Shown here piece after piece: positions 2,935-59,415 of a stretch of 64,000 nucleotides of DNA. The stretch is from an uncultured Lentisphaeria bacterium (GTDB lineage: Bacteria > Verrucomicrobiota > Lentisphaeria > JABSQK01 > JAJFLO01): contig OX638337.1 of the NCBI GenBank assembly GCA_951812855.1, positions 960,108-1,024,107 on the forward strand, read 5' to 3'. Each line of letters begins with the position of its first letter. The first letter of the stretch is position 1. A program made the position numbers and the translations under genes. Under the pieces are notes generated by a model that worked only from the letters and a program-made list of their open reading frames with translations, did not search any database and was not told where the DNA came from.

Positions 2935-3687
2935 TTGAGACAAACCAAATTAACTATGAAATCCAGAAACGATACACCGGCGGAGAATGAACAGTCAAGA
3001 AAAAATATCTGGTCCATGTTTGATCAAATCGCCCACCGATACGATTTTTTAAATCATTCACTCTCATTAGGCCAAGATATTATTTGGCGGTCACAGGTGA
3101 GTAAATGTATCTCAGGAAAAGGTTTTTCAACGTTTCTGGACATTGCCACGGGAACCGGTGACCAACTCATTCGAATTGTTAATAAAGTGAATACAATTCA
3201 ACATGCAATTGGTCTGGACATGTCGATAAATATGTTGAATATCGGAATGAAAAAAATTGCAAATCAGAATATTCAAAACCGGACTGCACTTATCCATGGA
3301 GACGCATTGAATTTGCCTATTGATTCTGATTCAGTAGAACTTGTCACCATTTCTTTCGGTATTCGAAACGTTATTGATGTGTCAGAGGCACTGAAAGAAA
3401 TGTTCAGGGTCATGAAAACAGGTGGAATGGTAATTATATTAGAATTTTCTATCCCGAAAAATAGATTATTTAGAATTTTTTATTTATTTTATCTAAGGAA
3501 TATACTTCCCGTTATAGGATCATTAATTTCAGGTAACAAAAAAGCGTACACCTATCTTAATAAAACGATAGAGACCTTTCCCTGTGGGAATGAGTTTTGT
3601 GACATTATGAAAAAATCAGGTTTTACAAATATATCCGCCAAACCATTAACATTCGGGATCGCAACACTATATCGTGCCGGTAAATAA
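2935..3687 (+). CDS. ubiE: Demethylmenaquinone/ubiquinone C-methyltransferase (UbiE/MenG family, class I SAM-dependent)
   Basis: 250-aa ORF (track start is TTG at 2935; ATG at 2956 is an alternative start); SAM-binding motif LDIATGTGD and UbiE-like N-terminus MFDQIAHRYDFLNHSLSLG; heads men gene block. Confidence 0.8.
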   Translation: MRQTKLTMKSRNDTPAENEQSRKNIWSMFDQIAHRYDFLNHSLSLGQDIIWRSQVSKCISGKGFSTFLDIATGTGDQLIRIVNKVNTIQHAIGLDMSINMLNIGMKKIANQNIQNRTALIHGDALNLPIDSDSVELVTISFGIRNVIDVSEALKEMFRVMKTGGMVIILEFSIPKNRLFRIFYLFYLRNILPVIGSLISGNKKAYTYLNKTIETFPCGNEFCDIMKKSGFTNISAKPLTFGIATLYRAGK

Positions 3688-5105: not shown

Positions 5106-5134
5106 GCAGAATTCTAATCTGATTAATTGCACTT

Positions 5135-7543: not shown

Positions 7544-10500
7544 ATGCATGACGATTCCACAATAAACGATGGGATAATTCCCCTTACCAATCCTGATCAG
7601 GCAGAGCTTGATAAACATGCGATTATCGAAGCATCGGCGGGAACGGGGAAGACCTATACGATCGAACAGCTGGTTGTTCGACTGCTCATTGGAAACCCTG
7701 ATGTAAATCCTCCGGTTTTACCTATTCCTATTGACCGGATTCTGGTTGTCACATTTACCGAAAAAGCGACCGGCGAAATGAAAGACCGGATACGTAATAC
7801 TATCGAAGCAAAACTGAACAACGCAGCACGTTCTGATACCGAATGGTTCTATCTGCATGACGCACTGGAAAATTTTGATAATGCCCAGATATCAACGATA
7901 CATGGGTTCTGTCACCGAACATTGCGGGAACATGCCTTTGAAAATGGTCGCCAGTTTGAATATGATGTCGTTGATGATCGGGATATTTACCATACACTGT
8001 TACTCCGGCAAATGCGGGAAGATTGGCCAAAACACTATGGCCGCAATCTATGCACATACCTTCTATTGGCAGATTTTCCGCATCGAGTCCAAAATGAGAG
8101 TCAGTGGATAGACACAACGATTAAACTTGCACAAAACTTCAGACCCAATGCCGGAGATCAACTCTATCCTGAACCTGATGCAACCGTTTCACCAATGAAA
8201 ACTGTGTCGGAACTGAAACAATACCTGTCTGAATTAGTAATGGTGATTGGAGGATTTCCAATTAACTCTGTTACCGATCATCCATTTTATGGTGCGTATT
8301 CCAGATTGAACTTTAATGCCGGCAGCAAAAACCTCCGCCTTAAGAACGTTATTACACCATTATTAGAACTGTTAGACCATTTCAGGGAAAAGAAGAATGA
8401 CATTCTGGATTCCGGTACAGTCGCAGCAATGATCAGATTAATCCGGGATAATAAAAAAACATCAGCGTTTGCTGAGTCCGGTTTTGCCTGCCTTATGCCG
8501 AAAAAATGGAATAAGGACAAGAACAACCTGGATACAGAATGCCCGCATTTACAATCTATAATCAACCCTCTTGAACAGATCCGGGAATTGACAACATCCT
8601 TTGCCCCTCAATTCAGGAGTCAGGTTGTTAAACAACTGCAAACCGATGTCCGCCTGTATAAGGAACAGAAAGGTTTACTGACTTACAACGATATGATCTC
8701 CATGGTTGCAGCCGCGTTATCCGGAAACCATGGCACTGAAACCCCGCCTCCATTATTATCTGCGTTACGTGATCGCTACAAGATTGCATTAATCGATGAA
8801 TTTCAAGATACGGATATCTTACAATGGTCAATTCTGAAAACCGTTTTCGTGGATAAACATGATGACAGCCCACACCGTTTAATTGTTGTTGGAGATCCCA
8901 AACAGGCAATATATGGTTTTCGCGGTGCCGATTTGAATGCCTATTATTTAGCCCGAAATCAACTTGGTAAACTCGGAAAAACGAAAACCGGATGTTACTC
9001 ACTGGATACCAATTGGCGTTCAATTCCACAGTTAATAGATGCATTCAACGCTCTATTCAAACACGATAACTGGTTTCAACGTAATGACATCCGACATCAA
9101 CCGGCCAATACTCCGACACCCGGATCAGGACGGAATCGATTATATCGTGACAACACAGGTTCTTCAGTATTAATAACGCATAGCATTAACAGTGATAAAT
9201 CAGCGAAGGCGGCTCAGGCAGAGTGGTTTAAATTTATTGCAGCAGAAATTGATCGTTTACTGAATTCATCAACTGAAATGATGATGTTTGGTGATAAAAC
9301 CTCACCGCCTCGACCGCTTCGTGCAGATGATATTTGTATCCTTTGCCAAAATAAAACAGAAGCCGGACGAATAGAGAAAGAATTAAATAACACTCACATC
9401 CCCTATTCATTTTACAAAAAACCGGGGCTATATGAATCCGATGAAGCCTTGCAGCTGCTTTACTTATTAGAGGCAATTGCGTCGCCAAATGATACGGCTG
9501 CGTTTAAGAAACTGCTGATGACATGCTTTTTTGCAATTCCGGTATTAGATGTCAAAAATTATGAAAATCTGCCTTCGGATCATTGTATTAAACGGCTTTT
9601 CCTGAAGTGGGTCAGACATGCAGCAAATCGACAGTGGGCGATTATGTTTCATTCAATCAGAAACGAAACCCGCATTCTGCTAAACACAGGAAACGACCCC
9701 GATCATGAACGGCGATTAACAAATATTGAACAGATTATCCAAGAACTCCATAATCGTGCATTGACCGAAAATATGGATATTATTGACCTTGCCAATCTTC
9801 TTGGCAACCTTTATTATAATCATATCTCAATCTCTGAGGAAGACAATTTACATCGTCGAGACACAGAACATCCCGGGGTACAAATGACCACCATCCATAA
9901 GAGTAAAGGACTTGAGTTTCCTGTTGTTTTCATTGCCGGGGGAATGACAGCACCTCCGAATACAAATCAACCCTATTACAAGATTCATAATGGGGAACAT
10001 GTCATTTATGACCTGACATCCAAATCAAAATCACAATGGGAAAATGAACAGCATGAAGAACTGCAGCGGTTATACTATGTTGCATTAACCCGGGCAATAT
10101 ATAAGCTTTATATTCCTCATTATCGAAACGAAAAACAGCTGAATGCGTCAGGAGCAGTCGCCAAAATACTATATCCCGCCATTAATGCTGCTGCAGGCGA
10201 ACTTCCCGCCGCTCCTGTTATAACTGATCGAATTGATATATCAAACTCTGAGTGGAACGAGTCGAGGATGAAGGTAATACAACTCGATCCGGCAATAGAG
10301 TTACCGCGTAACGATTTCAATCTCAGAGACCGAAACAGGTCACAGAGTATCGATTCATATTCCGGGTTAAAAAACAAAATGCTGCCACATGCTCCAGCCA
10401 AATTCCAGAATATCTCAAATCAATTCGGATATGACCAGGCGGAAGAACCTGCAGCCGATGAAAGCAGTCAAACGACGCAAACCCGGACAATGAACATTGA

Positions 10501-11258: not shown

Positions 11259-13385
11259 ATGATGAGTTTACCACTAACGATCGAAACCCTGAAACATCAC
11301 AATGTTATATCTCCGGGGAACATTGATATTGAAACGCTTTATACCAATGCACTGGACCATTTAAATCTAACCGGTGCAGACTATCTGACGATTCGGGATT
11401 TGCTGCAATTCATCAATCAACCGGAAATAGACGTTCATGCACTTTTGCTCTGCATGTTTGCATCGCTTAATGATGGAAGTGTCTGTATTCATATTAACCC
11501 GTCAAATCTTAACAGACACTTATGTCGGTTTCTAAAGAATGAAACAGTCATTGACCGACTGGTTCAGGATATAATTTCCTGCCTGAAGAATAAAAAAACA
11601 GCCCCTGTCATTGGTCAGTCAGTTAAGGAATTTAAACCCTTAATTCAGGCAAATGACAGCCTGTTATACTTTCAAAAATACTACTCTGCAGAATATAGAT
11701 TAGGCCAGTTACTCTCATCAATTATAGATAGCGACAGCACAATTACCCCGATTACAGATGGTAATCTAAATGAGATACTGATTGATAGTTTTGAGACTCA
11801 ACCAATTGGATCAGGCCACGGGCAAATTCGTTATAATGATGACCAGATTTTGGCTCTGATTGCTGTACTTTTAAAACGATTTGTCATCATTTCCGGAGGT
11901 CCGGGAACAGGGAAAACGTCTCTGATTATCGCCATTGTCCGGATGTTTATCCGAACCGGTATATTCGCTGACCGTATCAAGCTTGCTGCACCAACCGGGC
12001 GTGCCGCCCAACGATTGACAGAATCTATTCATGCTTTAAATTTCAGTCAGGGCAGCAAAAATGAGATTGATGACAGTTTGAAAAGTATGGACGCTACGAC
12101 AATCCATCATCTTCTTGGTTATAAAAAATCACGTAATTCATTCACCTGCAATGACCATAACCTCCTGCCTGCAGATGTGGTTATTGTCGATGAAGTGTCC
12201 ATGGTTGACATCGTCTTAATGACAAAACTTTTACAGGCAATCCCAAAGGAGTGTCACATTATTTTTCTTGGTGATCGCAATCAATTACCCTCAGTTGAAG
12301 TCGGCAGTGTTCTGGCAAATCTTATCCCCGTATCGTTACCGGGATATTCTATTGAATTCCGGGAAACCGTAAAATCAATCAGACCCGAAATTAATCTGCC
12401 GGCACTATCGGCACAAGACAATAATCAATTGTGTGACAAGGTCGTATTTTTGTCGAAAAATTACCGTTCTGAACCAAATATAATACAGATTACCGATACA
12501 ATAAACTCACTTTCAAATGAAAACCCGGGCATAGACACAGCATCCAGGGCGGCCGAAATAATCCATGACCTTCCACAATTGAATATAAAGCAAATGACCC
12601 ATTCCTCACAATTCCCTAAAACTGGATGTTGGCAGTTTATACCCGGCACAACTTCCGATAAATTGATATGGATAGAAATCATACAAACCTGGGGAAAATC
12701 TCAATACCTGATGCGCAGAGACAACCATGGAAACACCTATAAAGACTGTATTCAAAAAGTTCAGGGAAGAGAGATTCAGTCTGAGGTTCACAGTGATGAT
12801 AAAAACGAAACATTTGATGCGATATTTAAATTTATCAGTCAGGCACGAATACTGACACTCATCCATGCCGGATTATTGGGTACCCAGGGTATTAATGAAA
12901 TTTTAATCAATCAGCTTCACCCCGAATTCGATACCCCGGGAAGCAATGCAATATTTCACGGATCACCTATCCTGATTACCCGCAACGATAAAATAAGTGG
13001 TCTGTTTAATGGCGATATAGGCGTTATACTAACTGATGCAGAGCGTGGATTTAACGGCGTGTTCCAACGGTCAGGAAACTACATTTCAATTCCTGTCAAT
13101 GAACTCCCGCCATACGAATCATCTTTCGCCATGACTGTTCATAAAAGTCAAGGATCTGAATATGATGACGTTCTTCTTGTACTCCCCGATAATCCCAATC
13201 ACCGATTATTGACGCGTGAAATCATTTACACCGGCCTCACCCGTGCAAAAAATCTGGCTGTTATATATGGTTCAAAAGAAACACTGCAAACCGCTATAAC
13301 AATACAGATACATCGGGAATCAGGATTGGATATTTGGAATTTTCATGAAATACAGGGGGAATCTTTACACAGACAAAATGTATAG
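11259..13385 (+). CDS. recD: RecD-family SF1 5'-3' helicase (exodeoxyribonuclease V alpha-like)
   Basis: 708-aa ORF; Walker A ISGGPGTGKTS, Walker B …VIVDEVSMVD…, C-terminal …TVHKSQGSEYDDVLLVLP…; 40 bp downstream of recB. Confidence 0.8.
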   Translation: MMSLPLTIETLKHHNVISPGNIDIETLYTNALDHLNLTGADYLTIRDLLQFINQPEIDVHALLLCMFASLNDGSVCIHINPSNLNRHLCRFLKNETVIDRLVQDIISCLKNKKTAPVIGQSVKEFKPLIQANDSLLYFQKYYSAEYRLGQLLSSIIDSDSTITPITDGNLNEILIDSFETQPIGSGHGQIRYNDDQILALIAVLLKRFVIISGGPGTGKTSLIIAIVRMFIRTGIFADRIKLAAPTGRAAQRLTESIHALNFSQGSKNEIDDSLKSMDATTIHHLLGYKKSRNSFTCNDHNLLPADVVIVDEVSMVDIVLMTKLLQAIPKECHIIFLGDRNQLPSVEVGSVLANLIPVSLPGYSIEFRETVKSIRPEINLPALSAQDNNQLCDKVVFLSKNYRSEPNIIQITDTINSLSNENPGIDTASRAAEIIHDLPQLNIKQMTHSSQFPKTGCWQFIPGTTSDKLIWIEIIQTWGKSQYLMRRDNHGNTYKDCIQKVQGREIQSEVHSDDKNETFDAIFKFISQARILTLIHAGLLGTQGINEILINQLHPEFDTPGSNAIFHGSPILITRNDKISGLFNGDIGVILTDAERGFNGVFQRSGNYISIPVNELPPYESSFAMTVHKSQGSEYDDVLLVLPDNPNHRLLTREIIYTGLTRAKNLAVIYGSKETLQTAITIQIHRESGLDIWNFHEIQGESLHRQNV

Positions 13386-28697: not shown

Positions 28698-30908
28698 ATG
28701 GATATTACACATTTACGTTTGGGAACTTTAGTCATCTCTGTATTTGTCGGGGTATGGCTTTTTATTGTTTCACACTATATCCGAATTCCTGCAATTGTTC
28801 TTTTACTGATTGGAGGCGTAATACTGGGGCCGGAGGGGTTGGCCATAATCGACCCTGAATCTCTTGGACAGAGTCTTCGGTTAATCATATCTCTGTGTGT
28901 TGCCATTATACTTTTTGAAGGAGGTTTATCCTTAAAGCCCGAGGGATTTAAGAAGGCACCAAGAGTTATTTGGAAGCTTTTAACAATCGGTGTCGGAATC
29001 ACCTGGCTTGGAACTGCTGCGTTAATTCATTTTCTTCTGAATTTTCCTATACCAGTCTCATTATTATGCGGCAGTCTGGTTATTGTTACGGGTCCAACAG
29101 TTATCGCGCCATTGCTTAATCGAATCAGTGTTAAGGATAAATTATATCACATCTTGCATTGGGAAGGTGTTTTAATTGATCCAATTGGTGTTTTTATTGC
29201 AATTTTGTGTTTCGAATGGTTAAGCATTGAGGGAAGTTTTATAACGCATATTGGACATTTAAGCTATCGCTTGTTAGTTGGCATTGTGATAGGTATCATT
29301 GGCGGTCTAATTTTAACGTTTTTACTGGTTAAAAAAATAATACCGGAACAACAAGTGAATATTTTGGTATTTGCCACAGCGTTATTTTTATTTGGTATCT
29401 CTGAATCAGTTGTTCACGAGGCCGGTATTCTTACCGTGGTTATAGCAGGACTTGTTATGGGCTGGACGTCTCCTCCGCAGCTTAAACATATCAAAAAATT
29501 TAAATCTGAGTTAACCGAAATTTCGATTGCACTGGTTTTCATACTTCTTGCCGCCAATCTTGAACTGCATCAATTTTCAAAATTCGGCTGGAGAGTTGTA
29601 TTGGTTATTTGTGGTGTGCTGTTTATTATTCGTCCACTTAGCATCATGCTGTGTACAAAAGGCTCTCAACTTAGGATGAATGAAAAATTGTTTCTGTCCT
29701 GGATTGCCCCAAGGGGGGTTGTCGCAGGGTCGATGGCGTCCCTCTTCGGGTTAAGGTTATCAATGCAAGGTCATCCAAACGCAATATTTTTGGAAACATT
29801 TACATTCAGTATCATCGCAACTACAATTGTTTTTCAAGGATTAACTGCTGGTATTGTGGCACACTGGTTAAAGGTTGAAGAACCCGAAAAGAAGGGATGG
29901 CTTATCATCGGTGCTCACCTTTTCTCAAGAAAAATTGCGTCGTTCATCATGGAAACGACCAATGGCGTATGTATTTTGATTGATACCAATGAAGATGCGG
30001 TCAGAGAGGCACAAAATGAGGGATTTATCGTGATCCAGGGCAATGCGTTGTCGACGGATATTCTTCCTCTTGATCAGATGTCTTCAATCGGCAATCTCCT
30101 CGCACTGACTGATAACCGGGATTTAAACCAGTTGATTTGCGAGAAATGGTCAGAGATGATTGACCGTAATCATTTATACAGGTGGTCGTCACGATCCATT
30201 CAGGATGAAAACGAAATTGGTGGAATGGGAAAGCCGTTATGGCCGATGATCCCAAAACCCTCTCAACTGTCATATGATTTAAAAAACATGAATGTCAATT
30301 GTCGGCAATTAAATGAAAACGAATCGTTTGTAAAGTCATCCGGAAATGAGAGGATGATAACCTTTACTGACAGCACACTTCATTTTTCAGACAGTGTTCC
30401 TGAAGGAGTTGAAGCACCTGATGTTTTTGTGTTGGAACGACTGTCGCTGAATTTACTTGGATTAATTAAACGTAATCAAATCTTTTTTCTTGACTATGAC
30501 GATTATGAAGAATTGTTAAATGTAATACTTAATGAAATTGAACAGATTTATCCGGATATTGTTAATGATGCACTCAAATCAAGTTTGGTGCATCGCGAAG
30601 TCAAATTTCCCTCAATACTGGCAAATAGAATTGCAGTACCGCACACCCGATCTTCCTCATTAAATGAGTCAATTTGTGTAGTTGTACAGTTAAAACAGGA
30701 GATAAATTTACCGCCGCCTAACGCCGGGACTGTCAGACTGTTATTTCTATTATTGACACCCGAAGATAAACCGGAACAACATTTAAGACTTCTTGCAGAA
30801 ATTGCCAAAATTGCATCGTCCCCGGACTTGGTTGATTCACTTATAAATGTGAATTCGATTGATGATTTAATACAAAATTTTAAGGGTATTAATGCAAAAA
30901 TCGAGTGA
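28698..30908 (+). CDS. NhaP/CPA1-type cation:proton antiporter with central RCK-like and C-terminal PTS EIIA (type 2, PtsN-like) domains
   Basis: 736-aa ORF; ~12 TM segments in first 400 aa, Rossmann-like middle region (…WLIIGAHLFSRKIASFIMETTNGVCILIDTNEDAV…), C-terminal EIIA-2 domain with AVPH active-site motif (…ILANRIAVPHTRSSSL…LLFLLLTPED…). Confidence 0.8.
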   Translation: MDITHLRLGTLVISVFVGVWLFIVSHYIRIPAIVLLLIGGVILGPEGLAIIDPESLGQSLRLIISLCVAIILFEGGLSLKPEGFKKAPRVIWKLLTIGVGITWLGTAALIHFLLNFPIPVSLLCGSLVIVTGPTVIAPLLNRISVKDKLYHILHWEGVLIDPIGVFIAILCFEWLSIEGSFITHIGHLSYRLLVGIVIGIIGGLILTFLLVKKIIPEQQVNILVFATALFLFGISESVVHEAGILTVVIAGLVMGWTSPPQLKHIKKFKSELTEISIALVFILLAANLELHQFSKFGWRVVLVICGVLFIIRPLSIMLCTKGSQLRMNEKLFLSWIAPRGVVAGSMASLFGLRLSMQGHPNAIFLETFTFSIIATTIVFQGLTAGIVAHWLKVEEPEKKGWLIIGAHLFSRKIASFIMETTNGVCILIDTNEDAVREAQNEGFIVIQGNALSTDILPLDQMSSIGNLLALTDNRDLNQLICEKWSEMIDRNHLYRWSSRSIQDENEIGGMGKPLWPMIPKPSQLSYDLKNMNVNCRQLNENESFVKSSGNERMITFTDSTLHFSDSVPEGVEAPDVFVLERLSLNLLGLIKRNQIFFLDYDDYEELLNVILNEIEQIYPDIVNDALKSSLVHREVKFPSILANRIAVPHTRSSSLNESICVVVQLKQEINLPPPNAGTVRLLFLLLTPEDKPEQHLRLLAEIAKIASSPDLVDSLINVNSIDDLIQNFKGINAKIE

Positions 30909-32818: not shown

Positions 32819-33721
32819 TTATATAACCGATCCTATTGAGAAAAGAATACTGTAAAGGATCAACAATTTACCGGTGTTCGCCAGTGATTCGTTCAGTGCA
32901 GATCCGTCTGTGTGGGTAAATATCGTCTTCACTACAGGTATAGCCGGTAATAAAATCAAACTGCTCATGATACTGTATTTGCAGGGTTTGCAGGCAATAA
33001 AAATGTAGACAGGAATCAAACAGGCCAATACGATGCATACTAAAAATTCCCATTTTGCAAATGTTTTTCCAAATATCACGGCAAGGGTTCTCTTCCCAGA
33101 TAATCGATCCTCATCAACATCACGAAGGTTATTGACGGCTAACATCGCCATTGATATTAACCCCGGGCCAAAACCGATGATGATAATATTGATGTCCAAC
33201 GTTAATGTCTGGACGTAGTATGTCCCGGCCAGAGCGACAGGTCCGAAAAAAATAAGTACAAAGATATCTCCCAATCCATTGTAACCCAAAGGATACGGGC
33301 CGCCGGTATACAGTATGCCTGATGTAATTGAAATAACTGTTATGATTAATATTACCCACCCGGCACGCTTAAATAGCAGCAGACCGAGTAATCCCGTGAT
33401 TATCATTAGTAAAATATAAGAAATTTTCATTGTCTGTGGTTTAATGAGACCAGCCTGAGTAACCCGGGTCGGGCCGGTTCGTTTATCCGAGTCCGAACCA
33501 TTTATAAAATCATAATAGTCATTCGCAAAATTTGTGGCAATCTGAATTGAAATAGCAATGAACAGGCAAATCGCTGCTGATAGCCAATGATATAATCCTG
33601 TCTTGTATGCTATTGCGGTTCCGATTAACACGGGTGCAATTCCTGCAAACAATGTTTTGGGTCTGATGGCCATAAGCCATATTTCAAATTTAGATAAATT
33701 CTGGTTCTGACACTTTAACAA
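32819..33721 (-). CDS. menA: 1,4-dihydroxy-2-naphthoate polyprenyltransferase (UbiA superfamily)
   Basis: 300-aa ORF; 8-9 TM helices; UbiA-family Asp-rich motifs (…NFANDYYDFINGSDSDKRTGP…, …NLRDVDEDRLSGKRTLA…). Confidence 0.85.
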   Translation of the reverse strand: MLKCQNQNLSKFEIWLMAIRPKTLFAGIAPVLIGTAIAYKTGLYHWLSAAICLFIAISIQIATNFANDYYDFINGSDSDKRTGPTRVTQAGLIKPQTMKISYILLMIITGLLGLLLFKRAGWVILIITVISITSGILYTGGPYPLGYNGLGDIFVLIFFGPVALAGTYYVQTLTLDINIIIIGFGPGLISMAMLAVNNLRDVDEDRLSGKRTLAVIFGKTFAKWEFLVCIVLACLIPVYIFIACKPCKYSIMSSLILLPAIPVVKTIFTHTDGSALNESLANTGKLLILYSILFSIGSVI

Positions 33722-34329: not shown

Positions 34330-35409
34330 TTAAAAATCGAGTAGTTCAACATCGAAGATTAACGTTGCTTTTGGGGGAATACGTGGCGGGGCTCCCCGTT
34401 CACCATAGGCAAGGCGGTGGGGAATTATTAATATGCGTTGTTCTCCCTTTTTCATATCTAAAAATGCTTCGTCCCATCCTTTGATGACACGACCAGCTCC
34501 AACATTGAATTCAAATGGTAAATTTCGATCTCGTGAACTGTCAAATGTTTTTCCATTGGCAAGAGTGCCGGTGTAGTGGGCTTTTACTTTTGTTCCTCTT
34601 TTGGGTTTATTACCTGAGCCTTCTTTTAATATAACATATCGTAATCCGGATGCAGTTTTGATTTGGTTCGGCCATTTTTTATTGATAATTGCATTGTCCT
34701 TTTCCTGTACCGCTTTTTCTTTCTCCGCCTGTTGATTTTTAGCCTTCTTCAGTCGGTTCTTAAAAGTATCATTGTCTGATTTAAACTTGTTTGCATCGTC
34801 ACCTACTCTGACAATGGTAATCGAATTTATCTTATCTTTATTCTGAATTTTATTAACGATATCCTGACCGTTTATTACTTCCCCAAAGACTGAATGTTTG
34901 TTGTCTAACCAGGGAGTTGCCTTGTGAGTGATAAAAAATTGACTGCCATTTGTATCCTGTCCGGAATTTGCCATAGACAGTATTCCCGGGCCGCTATGTC
35001 TAAGAGTTGGGTCAAACTCGTCAGAAAATTTATAACCGGGACCTCCAGTACCTCTGCTGAGTGGACAACCGCCCTGAATCATAAAATCGGGAATGACCCG
35101 ATGAAAGACTAATCCGTCATAAAACTTGGTTCCCTTTGGTTTATTCGATTCAATCGTACCCTCAGCTAATCCGATAAAATTCATGACTGTCAGTGGAACT
35201 TTGTCATAGTGTAACTTCAGCAGGATTGTTCCTTTTGAAGTATTGATCTTTGCATAGATTCCGTCACTGAGTTTTTTTGAAGACGATTCTCCAGCATAAG
35301 AAAGGAAGTTTATGGTTATTATTAGAATTAAGAGCTGAATAATATTTCTTAAATTATAACGGCATAGGATCATCTTTATTCCATCCTGTTTTGTCTGTTG
35401 CTTTTTCAA
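34330..35409 (-). CDS. Secreted dual-family peptidyl-prolyl cis-trans isomerase (cyclophilin domain fused to FKBP domain)
   Basis: 359-aa ORF; N-terminal signal/TM segment; cyclophilin motifs (…[15 protein letters not shown]…, …[18 protein letters not shown]…), C-terminal FKBP domain (…[14 protein letters not shown]…[29 protein letters not shown]…[10 protein letters not shown]). Confidence 0.8.
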
Positions 35410-35767: not shown

Positions 35768-36106
35768 ATGGAGAACACAAGCTCAAGTACGGAGAAGTTA
35801 TCTGAAGCCTTAAAAATGCTTGATGATGCAGCGAAAAGCAAAAAAGCTGAGATTCAGGATTTACTGTCTTCCAAATATAAGAATATAAAAGAAACATTTA
35901 CTGGTTTCGATTCTAAAGACTCAGTTGAAGCGTTAAAGAAAAATGCAACTGAAAAGGCATCAAGAGTAGCTGAAATCAGTGAAGATAGAGTTAAAGAGAT
36001 TGCAACTGAAATCGATCAAAATGTCCATAATAATCCCTGGCCGTATATTGGTGGAGCAGCCATATGTTCATTACTCCTCGGCTATATTATGGGGCGCAAA
36101 GATTAA
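35768..36106 (+). CDS. DUF883 (YqjD/ElaB-like) C-tail-anchored membrane protein
   Basis: 112-aa ORF; coiled/charged N-terminal region and single C-terminal TM helix (…WPYIGGAAICSLLLGYIMGRKD), the ElaB/YqjD architecture. Confidence 0.65.
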   Translation: MENTSSSTEKLSEALKMLDDAAKSKKAEIQDLLSSKYKNIKETFTGFDSKDSVEALKKNATEKASRVAEISEDRVKEIATEIDQNVHNNPWPYIGGAAICSLLLGYIMGRKD

Positions 36107-36160: not shown

Positions 36161-36550
36161 ATGAATAACATATTCAGTTCGATATTTAGTCGAGTTATAA
36201 GTCCAGTTTTCAAAGCAAGTCGGCAGACGTCTCTTAAATTATTAAAAATTGAAGTGGCCCGATGTCGTATTAATATTGTAAAAAAAGTGCGTCTGGCGTT
36301 TCTTGGCGGTGCAGGAGTCCTTTTCTTATACAGTTTTTTTACAAGTGGTTTTCTAATGTTGGCGGCGACTTGCTTTATCATATTAATGGTAAAATTTGGA
36401 GTGAAAACTGCCGTAATTTTTCTATTTATATCAGGTGCTTTATGTTGTCTAATCCCAATCACCATACTGTCGATAGTCAGCTCAGAAAAAGCCTGGCTAA
36501 AACATACCGATTGTGATTCTATCCTGGACGATGTTTTTTCAGGAAAATAA
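36161..36550 (+). CDS. Small inner-membrane protein (possibly YqjE-like partner of the preceding gene)
   Basis: 129-aa ORF with two hydrophobic segments; 55 bp downstream of DUF883 gene; family assignment tentative. Confidence 0.4.
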   Translation: MNNIFSSIFSRVISPVFKASRQTSLKLLKIEVARCRINIVKKVRLAFLGGAGVLFLYSFFTSGFLMLAATCFIILMVKFGVKTAVIFLFISGALCCLIPITILSIVSSEKAWLKHTDCDSILDDVFSGK

Positions 36551-36690: not shown

Positions 36691-37449
36691 TTGAATCTGA
36701 ATCGTATGAAAAATTGGTACAAAGACGCCTTTACTGAAGATTATATTCATATTTATCAACACCGCAACCAAACAGAAGCGACAATTCTAATCGACCGGTT
36801 ATTGAAATTTTTGAATTTACCAGGCGATTCATTGTGTTTAGATTTATGCTGTGGATTTGGTCGTCATTTATCATATTTATTAGATCAGGGGATAAATACA
36901 TATGGATTAGATTTATCACAGCCACTACTGGAAAATGCGGTTGAAATAAGGCAATTATCCGGTCGTGTCATTCTTGGAGATATGAGACACATTCCCTTTA
37001 GTAAGTCATTTGATTTTGTTTTCTCCTTTTTCTCCAGTTTTGGTTATTTTCACAGGGATTCAGAAAATATACAAGTTTTACAGGAGATTAATCGAGTGTT
37101 AAAACCAAAGGGAAGATTCTTAATCGATTATCTTAATGCTGAGCATGTTAAAGATAATTTGAGAGAACATGACCTTCGTTGCTATGATAATTTTACTGTA
37201 AAGCAGAAGCGCTGGATAAATTCAGATTTAAATACGGTAGAAAAAGAGTTAATCATTGAAGATGTCAAGGGTGAACGATCTTATTTTGAGAGTGTTAAAC
37301 TCTATGATCTGGTAGATTTCAGGCAACTTTGTTCAGCCTCGAATTTGAAAATCACCCATGAATTTGGAGATGCCATTGGAAAACCGTTTGACATCGGATC
37401 AAGTCGTTTGATCATGGTGGGGGGAAAAATTGACAGTCACCTTTCATAA
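36691..37449 (+). CDS. Class I SAM-dependent methyltransferase (translationally coupled to bshC)
   Basis: 252-aa ORF; SAM-binding motif …LDLCCGFGRHLSYLL…GLDLS…; stop overlaps bshC start by 20 nt. Confidence 0.75.
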   Translation: MNLNRMKNWYKDAFTEDYIHIYQHRNQTEATILIDRLLKFLNLPGDSLCLDLCCGFGRHLSYLLDQGINTYGLDLSQPLLENAVEIRQLSGRVILGDMRHIPFSKSFDFVFSFFSSFGYFHRDSENIQVLQEINRVLKPKGRFLIDYLNAEHVKDNLREHDLRCYDNFTVKQKRWINSDLNTVEKELIIEDVKGERSYFESVKLYDLVDFRQLCSASNLKITHEFGDAIGKPFDIGSSRLIMVGGKIDSHLS

Positions 37450-38995
37450 TTTCAATTTGGTAGATGATAACCTTTATAATGCCAAAATAACGTCCGCTTT
37501 TCTGGAAACAGATCCTTATTCATCAGATTCATTGTCCAGGAATCATCAATACGCGTCATCACGGTCTGACATCGACCGCGAATTTTTGTCGGAGACTTTT
37601 TCTGAATATAATAATGTCATCGGTAATGACTCCACGGCACTTTATAATTGCAGTCGAATAAGAAATGCAGGTTCAATGGCAGTGGTTACAGGCCAGCAGG
37701 CCGGGATGCTGACCGGTCCATTATACACGATATATAAGATTATTACGGCTGTTAATTTTGCAAAGCATTGTGAACATAAGTTTAAGACACCTGTCATCCC
37801 GGTTTTTTGGAACGCAACCGAAGATCATGATTTAAGTGAAGTCGAATCATTTCATTATCCTGGCAAGAAGTGGTCTGCCACTTTTTCACAAAACGGAGTT
37901 GCAGCACAATTTTTAAACGTAAATCCGGCATGTTCGAATCTTGTTTACAATTTCCTGGATTCAATCTCAGAAATAAATCATAAAGATGAAATTACATCTA
38001 TACTGACAAATGAGTTTGAAAAATACGGAGAATTTTCATCGTCAGTGACAGCCCGGTTATTTAAGGGGACGGGTCTGGTCATTATTGAACCAAAATTATT
38101 GCGTAAAAAGTCAACTCCATTTTTTCAAAAGTGCATCAGCCATTGTCATGATATCAGAAATGGATTGGAGCAGGCCGGTGTTCTCTTACAGCAAAATAAA
38201 ATTAAGCCTGCATTTCAGGTGTCCGGGGATTCAACAGGACTTTTTTATATAACAGATGACGGGATTCGATATCAAATAAAAAATAGGAAAAATGACTTTT
38301 TTATTAATAACAAATGGGTTTCGGAATCTTCAGCGTTACAACTTATTGCCGAGTCTTCTTCAAATTTTTCTACCGGTGCATACCTGAGACCCGTTTTGCA
38401 GTCAAAAATTATTCCTGCTCTGGCATATATAGCAGGTCCAGCGGAATATAGGTATCATTTACAACTGAAAAATATATTTCACATGTTTGATGTTAAAATG
38501 CCTGTAATTCTACCCAGAAATCATGCAACCATTTTGACAAAAAAAGAATTGAAAGTTGCGAATAAACTGGGTTTGAAAATTCATGATTATTTTGAAGGTC
38601 CTCAAAAATTTTATCATCAGCACAAGTTATATAAAAAAGGAAGAGACAGTTTTAAGAATGCTGAACAGGCCTTGATAGACATCGCTGAGAATTTGGCTCA
38701 GGACATACCGGATTTAGTCAATGAGAATGTATTAAATCAGTTTAAATCAAACTTGGGTATTCAATTAGACAAACTTGAAAAACGCGTTGCGAAAGAAGTC
38801 TTGAGACGCGAGGGAATTGACAATGCCAGAATTGATCGGTTTTATAATTGTATTTTCCCGAAAAAATCTATGCAGGAACGATGGATTAATATCTTTTATT
38901 TTATTGAACAAAATGGTTTATCCATTATCAGTGATTTGTTGAAAATTATCGATCCTTTAGAACGGCGACATTATGTTGTTTATACAGACCATTAG
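37430..38995 (+). CDS. bshC: Bacillithiol biosynthesis cysteine-adding enzyme BshC
   Basis: 521-aa ORF; conserved BshC block …AVVTGQQAGMLTGPLYTIYKIITAVNFAK…PVIPVFWNATEDHDL… and …AYIAGPAEYRY…; followed by bshB and bshA. Confidence 0.8.
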   Translation: MTVTFHNFNLVDDNLYNAKITSAFLETDPYSSDSLSRNHQYASSRSDIDREFLSETFSEYNNVIGNDSTALYNCSRIRNAGSMAVVTGQQAGMLTGPLYTIYKIITAVNFAKHCEHKFKTPVIPVFWNATEDHDLSEVESFHYPGKKWSATFSQNGVAAQFLNVNPACSNLVYNFLDSISEINHKDEITSILTNEFEKYGEFSSSVTARLFKGTGLVIIEPKLLRKKSTPFFQKCISHCHDIRNGLEQAGVLLQQNKIKPAFQVSGDSTGLFYITDDGIRYQIKNRKNDFFINNKWVSESSALQLIAESSSNFSTGAYLRPVLQSKIIPALAYIAGPAEYRYHLQLKNIFHMFDVKMPVILPRNHATILTKKELKVANKLGLKIHDYFEGPQKFYHQHKLYKKGRDSFKNAEQALIDIAENLAQDIPDLVNENVLNQFKSNLGIQLDKLEKRVAKEVLRREGIDNARIDRFYNCIFPKKSMQERWINIFYFIEQNGLSIISDLLKIIDPLERRHYVVYTDH

Positions 38996-39080
38996 GTCCA
39001 TATCAGCAAATCATAGATTTAACGTTGTGAAGTCTGACTGAAATGAAGAATGTAATACAACCAGAAAGAGTTGATACATT

Positions 39081-39791
39081 ATGGAATTGGATTATTTATT
39101 CTTGGCGGCCCACCCTGATGACGCAGAGCTATATTGTGGGGGATCAATTATTAAATTCAGGGAGAATGGTTATAGAGTGGGTATCCTGGATTTTACCAGA
39201 GGTGAAGCGGCAACTTCGGGTACAGTGGAAGACCGTGATCGCGAAACATTAACATCAAATGCAGTCCTCCAGCCAGATGTCAGGCACAACCTTGGACTTG
39301 TTGACAGTGGGTTGAGGGATGACGGGAATACGAGAATTCTGGTTGTTAATTATATTCGCAAGTATAGAGTTAAAGTATTGATTGCACCTCATGGACCATG
39401 CAGACATCCTGACCATACTGCTGTATCGACGCTGGCGAAAAATGTTTTTTTCTTTTCAGGTGCGGGCAAGTTCCCGTCTGATCATGAACGCTGGCAACCG
39501 CTGCAGCTTATTTACCATATGGAATTCCAGGATGTAAGACCGTCGTTTGTCGTTGATATTTCAGAACAGTTTGAACGAAAGATAAAGACAATTGAAGCAT
39601 ATAGTACCCAGTTCTATACGGATAGTAATCAAAATGAAAAGACACTGATCGGTTCCCATCGTTTTCGAGAGTTGATGATATCTCGGTTTAAGTATTATGG
39701 AAATCTTATAAATTGTGATTATGGAGAACCCTATATTCTTGACGAAACTCTAAGAATAGATGATCCTTTAAAGAACAAATTGGAAGGATAG
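39081..39791 (+). CDS. bshB: N-acetylglucosaminyl-malate deacetylase BshB (LmbE/PIG-L family)
   Basis: 236-aa ORF; LmbE-type metal-binding motif …LFLAAHPDDAELYCGGSI… and …HPDHTAV…. Confidence 0.8.
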   Translation: MELDYLFLAAHPDDAELYCGGSIIKFRENGYRVGILDFTRGEAATSGTVEDRDRETLTSNAVLQPDVRHNLGLVDSGLRDDGNTRILVVNYIRKYRVKVLIAPHGPCRHPDHTAVSTLAKNVFFFSGAGKFPSDHERWQPLQLIYHMEFQDVRPSFVVDISEQFERKIKTIEAYSTQFYTDSNQNEKTLIGSHRFRELMISRFKYYGNLINCDYGEPYILDETLRIDDPLKNKLEG

Positions 39792-39800
39792 GGTGAACGC

Positions 39801-40916
39801 ATGAATATCGGTATTGTTTGTTATCCATCAATTGGCGGGTCGGGCCTGATTGCAACTGAACTTGGAGTTAACCTCGCGAAACTGGACCATCAAATACATT
39901 TTATTTCATACTCAGTACCGTTCAAACTGTCAGTTTTCGACCGGAATGTCAACTTTCACTCTGTTGATCCCATTAACTATCCCTTATTTAATCAAACGTT
40001 ATACACATTTTCACTGACCGCAAAAATTATTGATGTCGTCAGAGAATATAAACTCGATCTTGTCCATGCACATTATTCGATACCCCATTCGCTATGTGCA
40101 CATTTAGCCAGGGAAGTCAGCGGGTGTGATTTTAAAATTATTACAACATTGCATGGTACAGACGTAACAATTGTCGGCCAAAATAAACCCTTATTTTCTT
40201 TGAATAAATATGGGATAGAGCAAAGTGATATGGTGACAACTGTATCACAATTCCAGAAAGAACATACGAATCGGTATATTGGTATTGCCAATGAAATAGA
40301 GGTGATTTATAATTTTGTTGATGCGGATATCTTCAGACCTGTTCCAAAAGGAAAATGCAGGGAATCACTGGCCTCGCCCGATGAAAAAATAATCATGCAC
40401 ATTTCAAATTTTCGGTCGCCGAAAGATCCCGAAGGAGTCATTAATATATTTCATGAAGTTTTGAAAAAAATCGAAGCGAAACTTGTCTTGATTGGTGACG
40501 GTCCGGGAATCGGAGAAATTAAAACATTATGTAAAGAGTTTAAAATCTGTGATAATGTTTGTTTCCTGGGAAAAATCGACAATGTCGAAAATCTGATACC
40601 TATGGCTGATTGTATATTACAACCCAGTTTAAGAGAATCATTCGGAATGGGTTTATTAGAGGCAATGTCCTGTGAAGTTCCTACGGTCAGCAGTAATGTC
40701 GATGGAATTCCTGAAGTAGTCGTTGATGGAGAAACTGGACTCATGGCTAATCCGGGAGATTATAAGACATTATCTGAGCATGTTATTAAAATTTGTTCGT
40801 CGGTGGATTGGGCAAAAAAGATGGGGAAAAACGGACGTCGGGTTGCTATTGAAAGATTCAACAAAGACAAAATCATCAGTGAATACCTAAAGTGTTATGA
40901 AAATGTGTTGAGCTGA
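39801..40916 (+). CDS. bshA: N-acetyl-alpha-D-glucosaminyl L-malate synthase BshA (GT4 glycosyltransferase)
   Basis: 371-aa ORF; BshA-type N-terminus MNIGIVCYPSIGGSGLIATELGVNLAKLDHQIHFISYSVPFKL and GT4 C-terminal motif …ESFGMGLLEAMSCEVPTVSSNVDGIPEVV…. Confidence 0.85.
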   Translation: MNIGIVCYPSIGGSGLIATELGVNLAKLDHQIHFISYSVPFKLSVFDRNVNFHSVDPINYPLFNQTLYTFSLTAKIIDVVREYKLDLVHAHYSIPHSLCAHLAREVSGCDFKIITTLHGTDVTIVGQNKPLFSLNKYGIEQSDMVTTVSQFQKEHTNRYIGIANEIEVIYNFVDADIFRPVPKGKCRESLASPDEKIIMHISNFRSPKDPEGVINIFHEVLKKIEAKLVLIGDGPGIGEIKTLCKEFKICDNVCFLGKIDNVENLIPMADCILQPSLRESFGMGLLEAMSCEVPTVSSNVDGIPEVVVDGETGLMANPGDYKTLSEHVIKICSSVDWAKKMGKNGRRVAIERFNKDKIISEYLKCYENVLS

Positions 40917-41025: not shown

Positions 41026-41343
41026 TCAGTTATGCCTGAACGTGAACATCGTATTATTTAGCACCTCTTTAATCGCAGATGCCGGTTTAGATAAATCAAT
41101 TGGTTTCATGACGCAGTCATATACACCCGCTTCCTTCGCTTTTTCAGGGCTGGTACTGCCACTGAAACCCGAAGCAAGTATAACGGGGATATTCGGATTA
41201 ATTTCCAGAATATGTTTGACCAGATCAGTTCCAGTCATTCCGGGCATTGTCTGGTCGGTAAAGATTAGATCAAATCGTTCTGAATTCGATTTAATTTTCC
41301 GAGAAGCAGAGATTATATTTTTATGTATTTGAGGGAATTTCCA
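41026..41343 (-). pseudogene. Response-regulator receiver domain remnant (C-terminal two-thirds only)
   Basis: Minus-strand frame reads (stop)…KIKSNSERFDLIFTDQTMPGMTGTDLVKHILEINPNIPVILASGF…AKEAGVYDCVMKPIDL…; contains phospho-acceptor Asp region and K of receiver fold but lacks the N-terminal acidic pocket and any start codon upstream. Confidence 0.5.
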
Positions 41344-53121: not shown

Positions 53122-53862
53122 TTGATAAATAAACAATTTTATGAGGGTCATTATATTACTATGATTTATTACGGTATAAATCCGGTCTTTGAATCTTTGA
53201 ATTCAAACAATTTGCCGGACACAATTTACACTGCTGCATCAAAGGACAGTTCAACGATTAATTCCATAATTCGTATAGCAGAAAAGAAAAATATACCTGT
53301 CATTCGAAAACTGGATCTGAAAAAACTCTGTCAGTCGGATAATCATCAGGGAGTGTGTGCACATATTGCAAGCTTAAATGAGCATAATTTATTTCAAACT
53401 GAAATTTCAACAAATAGATTTATTATGTTTGATGGTATACAGGATCCGCATAATTTTGGTGCTGCATTGAGAGTGTGTGAGGTATTTGGTTTCAAGCATG
53501 TAATTTTTCATAAAGGCAATTCCAGTGGACTTACTTCGACCGCAATCAAGGTATCTTCTGGTGCCGCATTTCACCTTAATCTGTATCAGACAAACCTGAA
53601 TTCAGCGATAAAGAGACTAAAACATCTTAATTTCCAAATTTGTATTTTAGACAACAACAGTGAGCAAAGCATATATGAAATAACGTTTCCGAAAAAGATT
53701 TGTTTTGTAATTGGCTCAGAAAATAAAGGAGTTCGTTTTTCGATTAAACGAAAATCAGATATTACAATGAAAATTCCGCTTTTGGGTAAGGTTGATTCAC
53801 TGAATGTTTCGTGTGCACTGTCAGCTGTATTGTCAGTATATACAGGCTTTGCGTCAGAGTGA
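53122..53862 (+). CDS. SpoU/TrmH-family RNA 2'-O-methyltransferase (RlmB-like, with N-terminal substrate-binding domain)
   Basis: 246-aa ORF; SPOUT motifs (…FDGIQDPHNFGAALRVCEVFG…, …IGSENKGV…, …LNVSCALSAVLS…). Confidence 0.75.
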   Translation: MINKQFYEGHYITMIYYGINPVFESLNSNNLPDTIYTAASKDSSTINSIIRIAEKKNIPVIRKLDLKKLCQSDNHQGVCAHIASLNEHNLFQTEISTNRFIMFDGIQDPHNFGAALRVCEVFGFKHVIFHKGNSSGLTSTAIKVSSGAAFHLNLYQTNLNSAIKRLKHLNFQICILDNNSEQSIYEITFPKKICFVIGSENKGVRFSIKRKSDITMKIPLLGKVDSLNVSCALSAVLSVYTGFASE

Positions 53863-55165: not shown

Positions 55166-55912
55166 TTGATTGATCTGACTGCAGAAATTTTAACCTTAAA
55201 GGAAACTCAAATGTATTGTGTCAGTGACTGGTATTTATCTTTAGGGCTTTATACATTTCCAACTCTATTTATTCAGTTGAATAATGATGAGATTGAATTA
55301 ATCAGAAATGTTGAAGATTGTTCTAATTCTTCCAGAAATATTATCAGAAAAATTGACAGTGCCGTAACCAGTTTCCCCGGAAGCAGTTTTATACATGTAG
55401 ACTATTGTGCCCCAACCGATTCTTCGTTATTTCAGAAGGGAAAAGGAGCGATTAATTCTGGTAAAACCGGCTGGAATATCCTGTCTCAAAGTGAAAAAGT
55501 AAAAAAGGCATTCGCCGAAGATAAAACAAAAAGGATTTGTGTTCATCCGTACAGAAGAATAGATCATGCCCGCGAATTCAGAGTTTTCACTAAAGCAGGT
55601 ACGGTTGTGGGAGTGTCTCAAAAAGATGTCGCTAAACATCATCCTAAACTTCATAAACGTCGGGACTTTATCCAAAGGAAAATTTACAAGTTTATGAAAC
55701 ATATCAATAGTCAATTGGAAACCGAAGACATCATTGTAGACGTTTATCTTACTTCTCAGGATGAATTAATGATTCTGGATACCCACTCATGGGGCGGGGC
55801 AACAAATCCGTTATTATTTCGCGACTGGGATCGTGACTGGAGTAAAAATTCTGGATTAGTTTTAGTTGAAAAACCCGAAAAGTTAGGGGGGAACGTCTCT
55901 GTTTCGTTTTAG
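55166..55912 (+). CDS. Cdc123/D123-family ATP-grasp protein (eukaryote-type)
   Basis: 248-aa ORF; three blocks closely parallel eukaryotic CDC123 as recalled: …GSSFIHVDYCAPTDSS… (cf. SVFPKLNWSAPRDA), …REFRVFTKAGTVVGVSQKD… (cf. AEFRCFVKENKLIGISQRD), …IIVDVYLTSQDELMILDTHSWGGATNPLLFRDWD… (cf. FVFDIYRDSRGKVWLIDFNPFGEVTDSLLFTWEE). Confidence 0.7.
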   Translation: MIDLTAEILTLKETQMYCVSDWYLSLGLYTFPTLFIQLNNDEIELIRNVEDCSNSSRNIIRKIDSAVTSFPGSSFIHVDYCAPTDSSLFQKGKGAINSGKTGWNILSQSEKVKKAFAEDKTKRICVHPYRRIDHAREFRVFTKAGTVVGVSQKDVAKHHPKLHKRRDFIQRKIYKFMKHINSQLETEDIIVDVYLTSQDELMILDTHSWGGATNPLLFRDWDRDWSKNSGLVLVEKPEKLGGNVSVSF

Positions 55913-57696: not shown

Positions 57697-59415
57697 CTAA
57701 ATCGTGGAAACAGGGAACTGATCCGTCAAGGATTTTACCTGGTCACGGACCTGTGTAAATATTGATTCATCATCAATATTTTTTACAACCTTATATATCC
57801 AATCTGCAATTAATTTCATTTCAGGTTCTTTCATACCCCGTGTCGTTACTGCTGGAGTACCTATTCTTAGTCCACTTGTCATAAACGGTTTTTCAGGATC
57901 AAACGGAATTAAATTCTTATTCACGGTAATTCCGGCTTTATCCAGGGCTGATGCCGCGATTTTCCCTGTTGTATTTAAAGGACGTAAATCGACCAGCATC
58001 AAATGATTGTCTGTTCCTCCAGATACAATACGGAACCCATGTTTGGATAATTCCTCAGCCATAACCTTTGCATTTTTTACAATTTGCATCTGATAATGTC
58101 TAAATTCATCGGTCAGAGCTTCTTTAAAACAAATTGCTTTTGCTGCGATGACATGCATTAACGGACCTCCTTGAATTCCCGGGAAAATTTGAGAATTTAT
58201 TTTCTTCAAATATTGCTCTCTGCAAAGGATGAAACCTCCTCTGGGGCCACGTAATGTCTTGTGTGTGGTAGATGTGACGACATCGGCATAGGGTACCGGG
58301 CCGGGGTGAATCCCTGCCGCCACCAGGCCGGCAAAATGTGCCATATCGACCATAAAAAGAGCATTTACTTTGTCCGCAATTTCTTTCAATCTCGGGAAAT
58401 TAATAATTCTGGGATATGCACTCGCACCGGCAAGGATCATCCTGGGCCTATTTTCTAATGCCAATGATTCGATGTTGTCATAATCTAAGTGTTCCGTTTC
58501 TTTATTAACTCCATAGCCAATAAAATCATAATATCTGCCGCTGAAATTAATCTTATGTCCATGTGTAAGATGTCCTCCGTGTGCAAGATCCATTGCAAGG
58601 ACCTTATCTCCAGGATCAAGTAAGGCAAAATAAACCGCCATATTTGCCTGGCTGCCAGAATGGGGTTGGACATTTGCACATTCTGCACCAAAGATTTTTT
58701 TTACGCGTTCAATTGCTGTATGTTCAACGTCATCGACGAAATCACATCCATCATAATAGCGCTTGCCTGGATACCCTTCTGCATACTTATTTGTCAGACT
58801 TGATCCCTGTGCAGCCCGGACTGCGGGAGAAACGATATTTTCAGAAGCGATAAGTTCTAATATTTCACTCTGCCTCCGGGTTTCCTTTTTTATATATCCC
58901 GCTATTTCAGGATCAACATCTTCAATTGCAGTTATATTATTATTCGGGCCTGTTTCAATTTTGTTAATGCGTCGTTTATGCCTGGCTTCGTTACTGAATG
59001 GGGTGTTTAACCACAATTCAATTAAGTCCAGTATTTCTTTGTCGGATTTGTTGCTGCTTCCAATAACAAGCACATTTGAATTATTATGTTCCCTGCTCAT
59101 TGCTGCAGACAGCTCTGATGTGACAAGTGCAGCCCGGACGTATCGATATCGATTTGCATTTATACACATACCGATACCTGATTTACAAATCAGTATACCA
59201 CAATCAGCCTTGCCAGTCGATATTTTAGCAGCGAGTATATTTGCGTAATCTGGATAATCATCTTTTTCATCGAAATCTGATGGACCTACATCTTCTACAT
59301 TCAACTTTTTGTCGTTAAAGTGTGCATATATTCTATTTTTTAACTCCCAGCCCCCATGGTCTGATCCAATAAGTATTTTGCATGGGGTTTTGGTAAAGTC
59401 GATTATGTCTCTCAT
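57697..59415 (-). CDS. glyA: Fusion protein: RpiB/LacAB-family sugar-phosphate isomerase domain + serine hydroxymethyltransferase
   Basis: 572-aa ORF; residues ~10-150 are RpiB-like (…[14 protein letters not shown]…[17 protein letters not shown]…NVLVIGS…); remainder is full SHMT (…[36 protein letters not shown]…, PLP-lysine region …[16 protein letters not shown]…); no internal start codon at the junction. Confidence 0.85.

Follow-up and report, generated by a model that had tools for sequence, protein, structure and literature searches.

A predicted nmbA-bshC-bshB-bshA operon for N-methyl-bacillithiol in an uncultured bacterium, probably of the Lentisphaerota

Introduction

Bacillithiol (BSH) is synthesized in three steps, in which BshA forms the N-acetylglucosaminyl malate conjugate (GlcNAc-malate), BshB deacetylates it and BshC adds cysteine, and NmbA then N-methylates the product (PMC6282198; PMC12719100). 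NmbA function was shown by knockout in Chlorobaculum tepidum (PMC6282198), and the enzymes of C. tepidum and Paenibacillus polymyxa (CtNmbA and PpNmbA) methylate BSH in vitro, acting on the cysteine nitrogen of reduced BSH and not on that of the disulfide (PMC12719100). Both enzymes are selective, being inactive on glycine, glutathione (GSH) and bacillithiol disulfide (BSSB), and they show the same activity despite being distant from each other; CtNmbA could also methylate a secondary amine in vitro (PMC12719100). N-methyl-cysteine was never detected in C. tepidum (PMC6282198). Here we describe a locus on a 64,000-nucleotide (nt) stretch of DNA (contig OX638337.1; this whole stretch is called the window below) of an uncultured bacterium that is probably a member of the Lentisphaerota. 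At this locus an nmbA homologue lies directly before bshC, bshB and bshA, and we consider it highly probable that the four genes are a functional nmbA-bshCBA unit making N-methyl-bacillithiol (N-Me-BSH).

In a 2025 RefSeq survey, Lentisphaerota and Chloroflexota were among the phyla without a complete BSH or N-Me-BSH pathway. For neighbouring phyla of the Planctomycetes-Verrucomicrobia-Chlamydiae (PVC) group, such as Verrucomicrobia and Planctomycetes, no thiol of any kind was on record or predicted as of 2018 (PMC6282198). Our own literature search for bacillithiol together with Lentisphaer* returned no paper from the library covered.

Results and Discussion

Gene organization of the locus

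The window encodes four consecutive plus-strand open reading frames (ORFs) at 36691-37449, 37430-38995, 39081-39791 and 39801-40916. The features assigned to this region are listed below, with protein lengths in amino acids (aa).

36706..37449, + strand: nmbA, bacillithiol N-methyltransferase orthologue, 247 aa; class I S-adenosylmethionine (SAM) methyltransferase domains, best PDB sequence match 9RI2
37430..37449, + strand: 20-nt overlap of nmbA and bshC; nmbA stop TAA at 37447-37449, bshC start TTG at 37430, preceded by the G-rich stretch GGTGGGGGG
37430..38995, + strand: bshC, bacillithiol biosynthesis cysteine-adding enzyme, 521 aa; TIGR03998 equivalog, PF10079 and PF24850
38996..39080, no strand: bshC-bshB spacer, 85 nt, without a terminator-like site on the + strand
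39081..39791, + strand: bshB, GlcNAc-malate deacetylase BshB1, 236 aa; TIGR04001 equivalog, PF02585 PIG-L
39801..40916, + strand: bshA, N-acetyl-alpha-D-glucosaminyl L-malate synthase, 371 aa; TIGR03999 equivalog, GT4 domains

All three biosynthesis proteins exceeded the cut-offs of their NCBIfam equivalog models over the full length, with 347 bits for BshC against TIGR03998 (cut-off 265.8), 207 bits for BshB1 against TIGR04001 (cut-off 182.5) and 461 bits for BshA against TIGR03999 (cut-off 273.7), and the Pfam assignments agreed. The complete bshA-bshB-bshC pathway shares a genome with nmbA and lies directly 3' of it, in a gene order that is the reverse of the pathway order and with a spacer of just 9 nt between bshB and bshA. 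An original prediction on this DNA had described a bshC-bshB-bshA cluster with a class I SAM-dependent methyltransferase upstream of bshC. The model scores bore out the cluster, and matches to Pfam Methyltransf_25/11/31/23/12, which are generic for class I enzymes, bore out the methyltransferase.

Among the closest described systems is that of C. tepidum. CtNmbA (CT1040) and the window protein are both class I SAM methyltransferases and are similar in length. They can be aligned from end to end, including the N-terminal and inserted cap segments, and both have motif I (xLDxxCGxGRH) as well as the DMR and SSFGYF motifs. The C. tepidum genome also carries bshA, bshB and bshC, but its four genes have scattered locus tags (CT0548, CT1419, CT1558, CT1040), whereas in the window all four stand together in a compact array whose nmbA overlaps bshC. 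The hosts differ as well, C. tepidum belonging to the Chlorobiota and the window host being a probable member of the Lentisphaerota. PpNmbA and the NmbA orthologues of Paenibacillaceae and Thermoactinomycetaceae, among which that of P. polymyxa has been validated (PMC12719100), fall into the same profile family as the window protein (245-280 vs 258 bits). In the Paenibacillaceae loci examined, however, the methyltransferase had no bsh gene within 6 kb. Order and strand as in the window were found in nmbA-like-bshC(-bshB-bshA) arrays of uncultured members of six phyla, 18 of which are complete four-gene arrays. Their putative methyltransferases share 31-40% identity with the window protein and sit on other branches of the tree.

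Start codons and the nmbA-bshC overlap

ATG 36706 is the most likely start of the methyltransferase, rather than TTG 36691, which would add 5 codons. Two public gene calls give 247 aa from this ATG and the family alignment starts at its Met. In an 82%-identical relative (GCA_021772675.1) the context of ATG 36706 is invariant, and the region of TTG 36691 shows an indel and substitutions. The 252 aa originally predicted for the protein should thus be corrected to 247 aa.

For bshC, public gene calls on identical DNA differ in their start, which is placed either at TTG 37430 (521 aa), giving the 20-nt overlap with nmbA, or at TTG 37457 (512 aa), giving a 7-nt gap. Comparison with the 82% relative makes the overlap the better-supported reading, because this relative keeps both the methyltransferase stop codon and TTG 37430 and has CTG at the position of 37457. 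The gene call of the relative itself also has a 20-nt overlap. With bshC starting at TTG 37430, the 20-nt overlap of the original prediction stands.

The methyltransferase was directly followed by bshC in all six examined members of the window's own clade, and in five of the six the stop and start codons overlapped by 4 or 20 nt (4 nt in clade members L085, L087 and L089). An overlap present in the window and kept in relatives is what would be expected of a translationally coupled pair. The presence of bshB and bshA in the cluster varied within the clade. In one member with 54% identity (L087 5001-8433, GCA_021772615.1) bshB is absent from the cluster, and the genes of its nmbA-bshC-bshA array overlap by 4 nt at each of the two junctions. 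Further members retain just nmbA-bshC or nmbA-bshC-bshB.

Identity of the methyltransferase

Searches of the methyltransferase against Pfam and NCBIfam returned only generic or sub-threshold matches, none of them to an NmbA model. Its best sequence match in the PDB was 9RI2 chain A (phmmer, 95 bits, E 3.8e-26), with an alignment spanning query residues 6-243 and chain residues 13-257 and the next structure at 64 bits. This entry is the crystal structure of CtNmbA, whose cap domain has a narrow topology described as a 'molecular basket' (PMC12719100). We also searched the PDB with a family profile that combined the window protein with 24 diverse homologues; it gave 217.5 bits for 9RI2 (E 1.5e-63), as against 92.2 bits for the structure ranked second. 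CypM, CcbJ, DesVI/TylM1, 3D2L and 1WZN, which are N-methyltransferases with a four-beta-strand cap, reached at most 92 bits with the family profile, as compared with 217 for CtNmbA. They are without equivalents of the window residues R58, K185, R174 and R239 and act on peptides or deoxythymidine diphosphate (dTDP) sugars.

Orthologues of NmbA have been defined against CT1040 by E <= 1e-20, coverage > 80%, identity > 25% and similar length (PMC12719100). The window protein falls within these limits in BLASTP (28% identity over 247 columns, E 8e-33, about 96% coverage, 247 vs 266 aa), with its identity close to the lower one. The closest named relatives, with 36-43% identity over the full length, were proteins of Paenibacillaceae and Thermoactinomycetaceae, which are the NmbA-bearing families of the Bacillota (PMC12719100). 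Baia soyae, whose homologue is a 40% match to the window protein, is included in the published list of NmbA proteins.

At the residue level, the window protein has the motif CLDLCCGFG together with D74 and D97 (class I SAM motifs I-III), and its AlphaFold2 model showed a 7-strand Rossmann fold with a beta cap (predicted local distance difference test score, pLDDT, 91). Fold searches agreed with NmbA but did not discriminate. We further defined a signature of 39 columns conserved to >= 90% across 96 family members, a set that excluded the window protein as well as its two nearest relatives. The window protein matched 38 of these 39 residues, CtNmbA 35, and four outgroup methyltransferases 16-23, mostly at generic SAM-binding positions; the sole mismatch of the window protein, S for T, is also found in CtNmbA. 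Family-specific signature positions include the equivalents of CtNmbA W16, R70, R189, K198 and R254, and the pocket residues W16, R70, Y134, F135 and K198 of CtNmbA correspond to W9, R58, Y119, F120 and K185 in the window protein. A second profile, made from 39 bsh-linked homologues only and again without the window protein, scored 258 bits for the window protein, 231 for CtNmbA, 245-280 for Paenibacillaceae and about 194 for Flavobacterium, and 73 bits for the nearest non-NmbA structure (PH0226, partial sequence). From these scores, the bsh-linked methyltransferases and the validated NmbAs therefore appear to be one family, of which the window protein is a typical member.

The original prediction had put the methyltransferase forward as a candidate bacillithiol N-methyltransferase. 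The match to 9RI2, the orthologue thresholds and the 38 signature residues all support this, and the alignment with a characterized NmbA, proposed at the time as a check, came out positive. Its description of NmbA as the enzyme that N-methylates bacillithiol in green sulfur bacteria was correct (PMC6282198), although it understated how established NmbA is, biochemistry and a crystal structure having been published in 2025 (PMC12719100). At the level of sequence, gene identities, family membership and conserved synteny are established for this locus.

Genome context and phylogeny

We surveyed the genome context of 80 loci, one genome per species, with methyltransferase homologues at 29-40% identity, by tblastn with BshC, BshB and BshA of the window. 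The methyltransferase (MT) was found in the following arrangements.

MT-bshC-bshB-bshA: 18 loci
MT-bshC-bshB: 3 loci
MT-bshC: 17 loci
MT-bshA: 1 locus
MT alone: 41 loci, three of them on contigs with < 1 kb downstream

Immediately downstream of the homologue was bshC in 38/80 loci, with genomes of about 8 phyla, and any bsh gene in 39/80. The linkage is far beyond chance: in these 39 species-representative loci, all from other phyla, the next gene downstream is a bsh gene. The linked loci came from Acidobacteriota (Thermoanaerobaculia), Chloroflexota, Hydrogenedentota, Planctomycetota, Gemmatimonadota and Latescibacterota; at the Paenibacillaceae, Bacteroidota and Ignavibacteria loci of the survey the methyltransferase showed no bsh linkage. 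In the NmbA papers that we checked there was no mention of an nmbA-bshC operon linkage. Judged from gene order, the recurrent adjacency of nmbA and bshC is independent genome-context support for the predicted NmbA role.

A neighbour-joining tree (200 bootstraps) was calculated with four PDB outgroups, using partial sequences from HMMER alignments. With a bootstrap value of 81%, the window protein grouped with its 42-82% relatives and one protein labelled 'Lentisphaeria'. The window clade fell inside the most recent common ancestor of the validated lineages (Chlorobiota, Paenibacillus, Flavobacteriia) in 72% of bootstraps, and inside that of the validated plus the bshC-linked basal lineages in 98%, on a tree in which the split between ingroup and outgroup had 38-47% support only and the single outgroup attachment was weakly supported. 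The phylogeny is thus weak evidence, consistent with NmbA and not discriminating.

Some features around the operon are shared among relatives. Directly upstream of nmbA the window encodes a DUF883/ElaB-YqjD-like protein of 112 aa (35768-36106, + strand) and a putative membrane protein of 129 aa (36161-36550, + strand). The same pair stands upstream of nmbA in three other clade members, L083 (4159-5114; the 82% relative), L087 (3908-4818) and L085 (2649-3293). In the metagenome-assembled genome (MAG) labelled Lentisphaeria the order is likewise DUF883, small membrane protein, methyltransferase and bshC, and the second gene overlaps the nmbA start by 11 nt. This DUF883/membrane-protein stress pair may share a transcript with the thiol operon. 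Also kept upstream of the operon in L083 and L087 is a secreted-looking dual peptidyl-prolyl isomerase with cyclophilin and FKBP domains, which the window encodes at 34330-35409 (- strand). The spacers of L083 measure 886 nt upstream of nmbA, about 693 nt between bshC and bshB and about 467 nt between bshB and bshA, the corresponding distances in the window being 155, 85 and 9 nt. The L083 segments concerned are 5115-6000, 8291-8983, 9695-10161 and 11278-12178. The long spacers hold inverted-repeat segments resembling miniature inverted-repeat transposable elements (MITEs), which occur in more than one spacer and had no match in the window.

Proposed pathway and alternative explanations

By family assignment, BshA would form GlcNAc-malate from uridine diphosphate N-acetylglucosamine (UDP-GlcNAc) and L-malate, BshB would remove the acetyl group from GlcNAc-malate and BshC would add cysteine to give BSH. 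By orthology to CtNmbA and PpNmbA, NmbA would then use SAM to methylate reduced BSH at the amino nitrogen of its cysteine. We infer that the four genes are co-transcribed and that translation of nmbA and bshC is coupled, because the nmbA stop overlaps the bshC start and short spacers follow; we likewise infer the activity of the enzyme and the presence of the thiol itself. If the genes are expressed in this way, the methyltransferase would be made whenever the last BSH-forming enzyme is made, and the methylated form would be the main low-molecular-weight thiol of the cell.

Some points weigh against this proposal. The identity of 28% to the crystallized CtNmbA is barely above the 25% threshold. 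Two residues of CtNmbA that were adjusted in docking, W20 and H31, are A13 and Q23 in the window protein, at positions that are not conserved across the family either. Scans for promoters and terminators stayed at chance level, with 27 promoter-like matches vs 24.3 in shuffled sequence, and because neither scan exceeded the shuffled expectation we placed the operon boundaries by gene spacing. A search of the whole window at Rfam gathering thresholds and a tRNA scan found nothing, and thus no riboswitch or leader RNA upstream. Among the ORFs of the window with >= 150 aa we identified no bacilliredoxin, Bdr/YpdA or BSH-transferase.

The alternative that survives best is that the methyltransferase is an NmbA-family paralogue which works in bacillithiol metabolism with another acceptor or to another extent, for example on the amine of glucosaminyl malate (GlcN-malate), on free cysteine before ligation, by dimethylation or on a BSH conjugate. 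The low identity to CtNmbA and the differences at W20 and H31 would fit such a role, as would the position of the window clade on a separate branch (81% bootstrap) that lies outside the smallest validated clade in 28% of bootstraps, and the ability of CtNmbA to methylate a secondary amine in vitro. However, all but one of the signature residues are kept, those of the pocket included, and CtNmbA and PpNmbA, although far apart, have the same selective activity and leave glycine, GSH and BSSB untouched. On the bsh-linked profile the window protein is also level with the Paenibacillaceae homologues, and N-methyl-cysteine has never been found in C. tepidum. We therefore regard a paralogue with a different acceptor as quite unlikely.

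It is very improbable that nmbA and bshCBA are correctly named but do not form one coupled unit, with bshC starting at TTG 37457 without overlap and independent internal promoters. One public gene call does start bshC at 37457 (512 aa), sigma-70-like matches lie within nmbA (37159-37188 and 37388-37415), and the 82% relative tolerates repeat-filled spacers of about 694 nt and about 468 nt between bshC, bshB and bshA. On the other hand, it is TTG 37430 that the relative conserves and 37457 that is CTG there, stop and start codons overlap, by 4 or 20 nt, in five of six clade members, and promoter-like matches are as frequent as in shuffled sequence (27 vs 24.3).

Least probable of all, and close to negligible, is an unrelated housekeeping methyltransferase (of menaquinone/ubiquinone, rRNA or another small molecule) that neighbours bshC by chance: matches to Pfam and NCBIfam class I models are generic, weak sub-threshold matches to UbiE/MenG, BioC and others exist and some public labels read 'UbiE', but the named NCBIfam matches are far under their cut-offs (UbiE, for example, 36 bits vs 216), the window has its own UbiE/MenG beside menF and menD as well as a SpoU rRNA methylase, a bshC neighbour is found again in roughly half of the 80 species-level genomes across many phyla, and the family profile separates CtNmbA from all other solved methyltransferases by 125 bits. 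Sequence and synteny together effectively refute an identity as UbiE or rRNA methyltransferase, the UbiE/MenG models giving <= 36 bits against cut-offs of >= 158. A grouping with ubiquinone or rRNA methyltransferases, which the original prediction had named among the results that would speak against it, was not seen.

The overlap of nmbA and bshC in this clade, and their immediate adjacency in at least six other phyla, could also be read more broadly, as a functional or physical partnership of NmbA and BshC with fixed stoichiometry or hand-off of the product, so that BSH would be obligatorily N-methylated in these lineages, together with the first predicted low-molecular-weight thiol for the Lentisphaerota. 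We consider this extended reading unlikely as a whole.

Other genes in the window

The genes menG/ubiE, menF and menD follow each other at 2935-7021 (+ strand), with UbiE/MenG at 2935-3687 matching PF01209 at 209 bits. A MenA/UbiA prenyltransferase is encoded at 32819-33721 (- strand), 3 kb upstream of the thiol operon, and the SpoU rRNA methylase at 53122-53862. Just 3' of bshA, on the opposite strand, lies a truncated remnant of a response-regulator receiver (41026-41300, - strand). It comprises the C-terminal two-thirds of the receiver domain (FDLIFTDQTMPGMTGTDLVKHI), preceded by an in-frame stop, and is without the N-terminal acidic pocket; its longest ORF from ATG has 73 aa.

Two fusion proteins are encoded in the window. 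One is a single 572-aa ORF at 57697-59415 (- strand), in which ribose-5-phosphate isomerase B (LacAB_rpiB) takes up residues 14-153 and serine hydroxymethyltransferase residues 164-540, and the other a 736-aa protein at 28698-30908 (+ strand) with Na+/H+ exchanger, TrkA_N and phosphotransferase system (PTS) EIIA-2 domains. A 248-aa protein at 55166-55912 (+ strand) matches D123/Cdc123 (PF07065, 79 bits), a family known above all from eukaryotes. Genes of the lipopolysaccharide (LPS) pathway are also present in the window and fit a diderm organism. The named relatives of the AspRS encoded in the window, at 66-71% identity, belong almost without exception to the Lentisphaerota, and the probable placement of the host is based on them and on the one methyltransferase homologue labelled Lentisphaeria. 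The exact protein is encoded on a metagenomic contig of 1.94 Mb (ENA ERZ18545485).

Significance for the predicted distribution of bacillithiols

Both the enzyme and the pathway were already known (Hiras 2018, PMC6282198; Hammerstad 2025, PMC12719100), and our knowledge of NmbA itself is unchanged by the locus. What is modestly new is the extension of the predicted distribution at the phylum level and the recurrent coupling of nmbA and bshC. The identification gives a name to a gene that is publicly labelled 'class I SAM-dependent methyltransferase' or, wrongly, 'UbiE', and the adjacency of nmbA and bshC could be put to use in constructing a curated model of the NmbA family. The window locus and the MAG loci gathered in this analysis widen the predicted distribution of BSH and N-Me-BSH. 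For the organism itself, the prediction from its genes is that an uncultured bacterium, probably of the Lentisphaerota, would use N-methyl-bacillithiol as a redox buffer.

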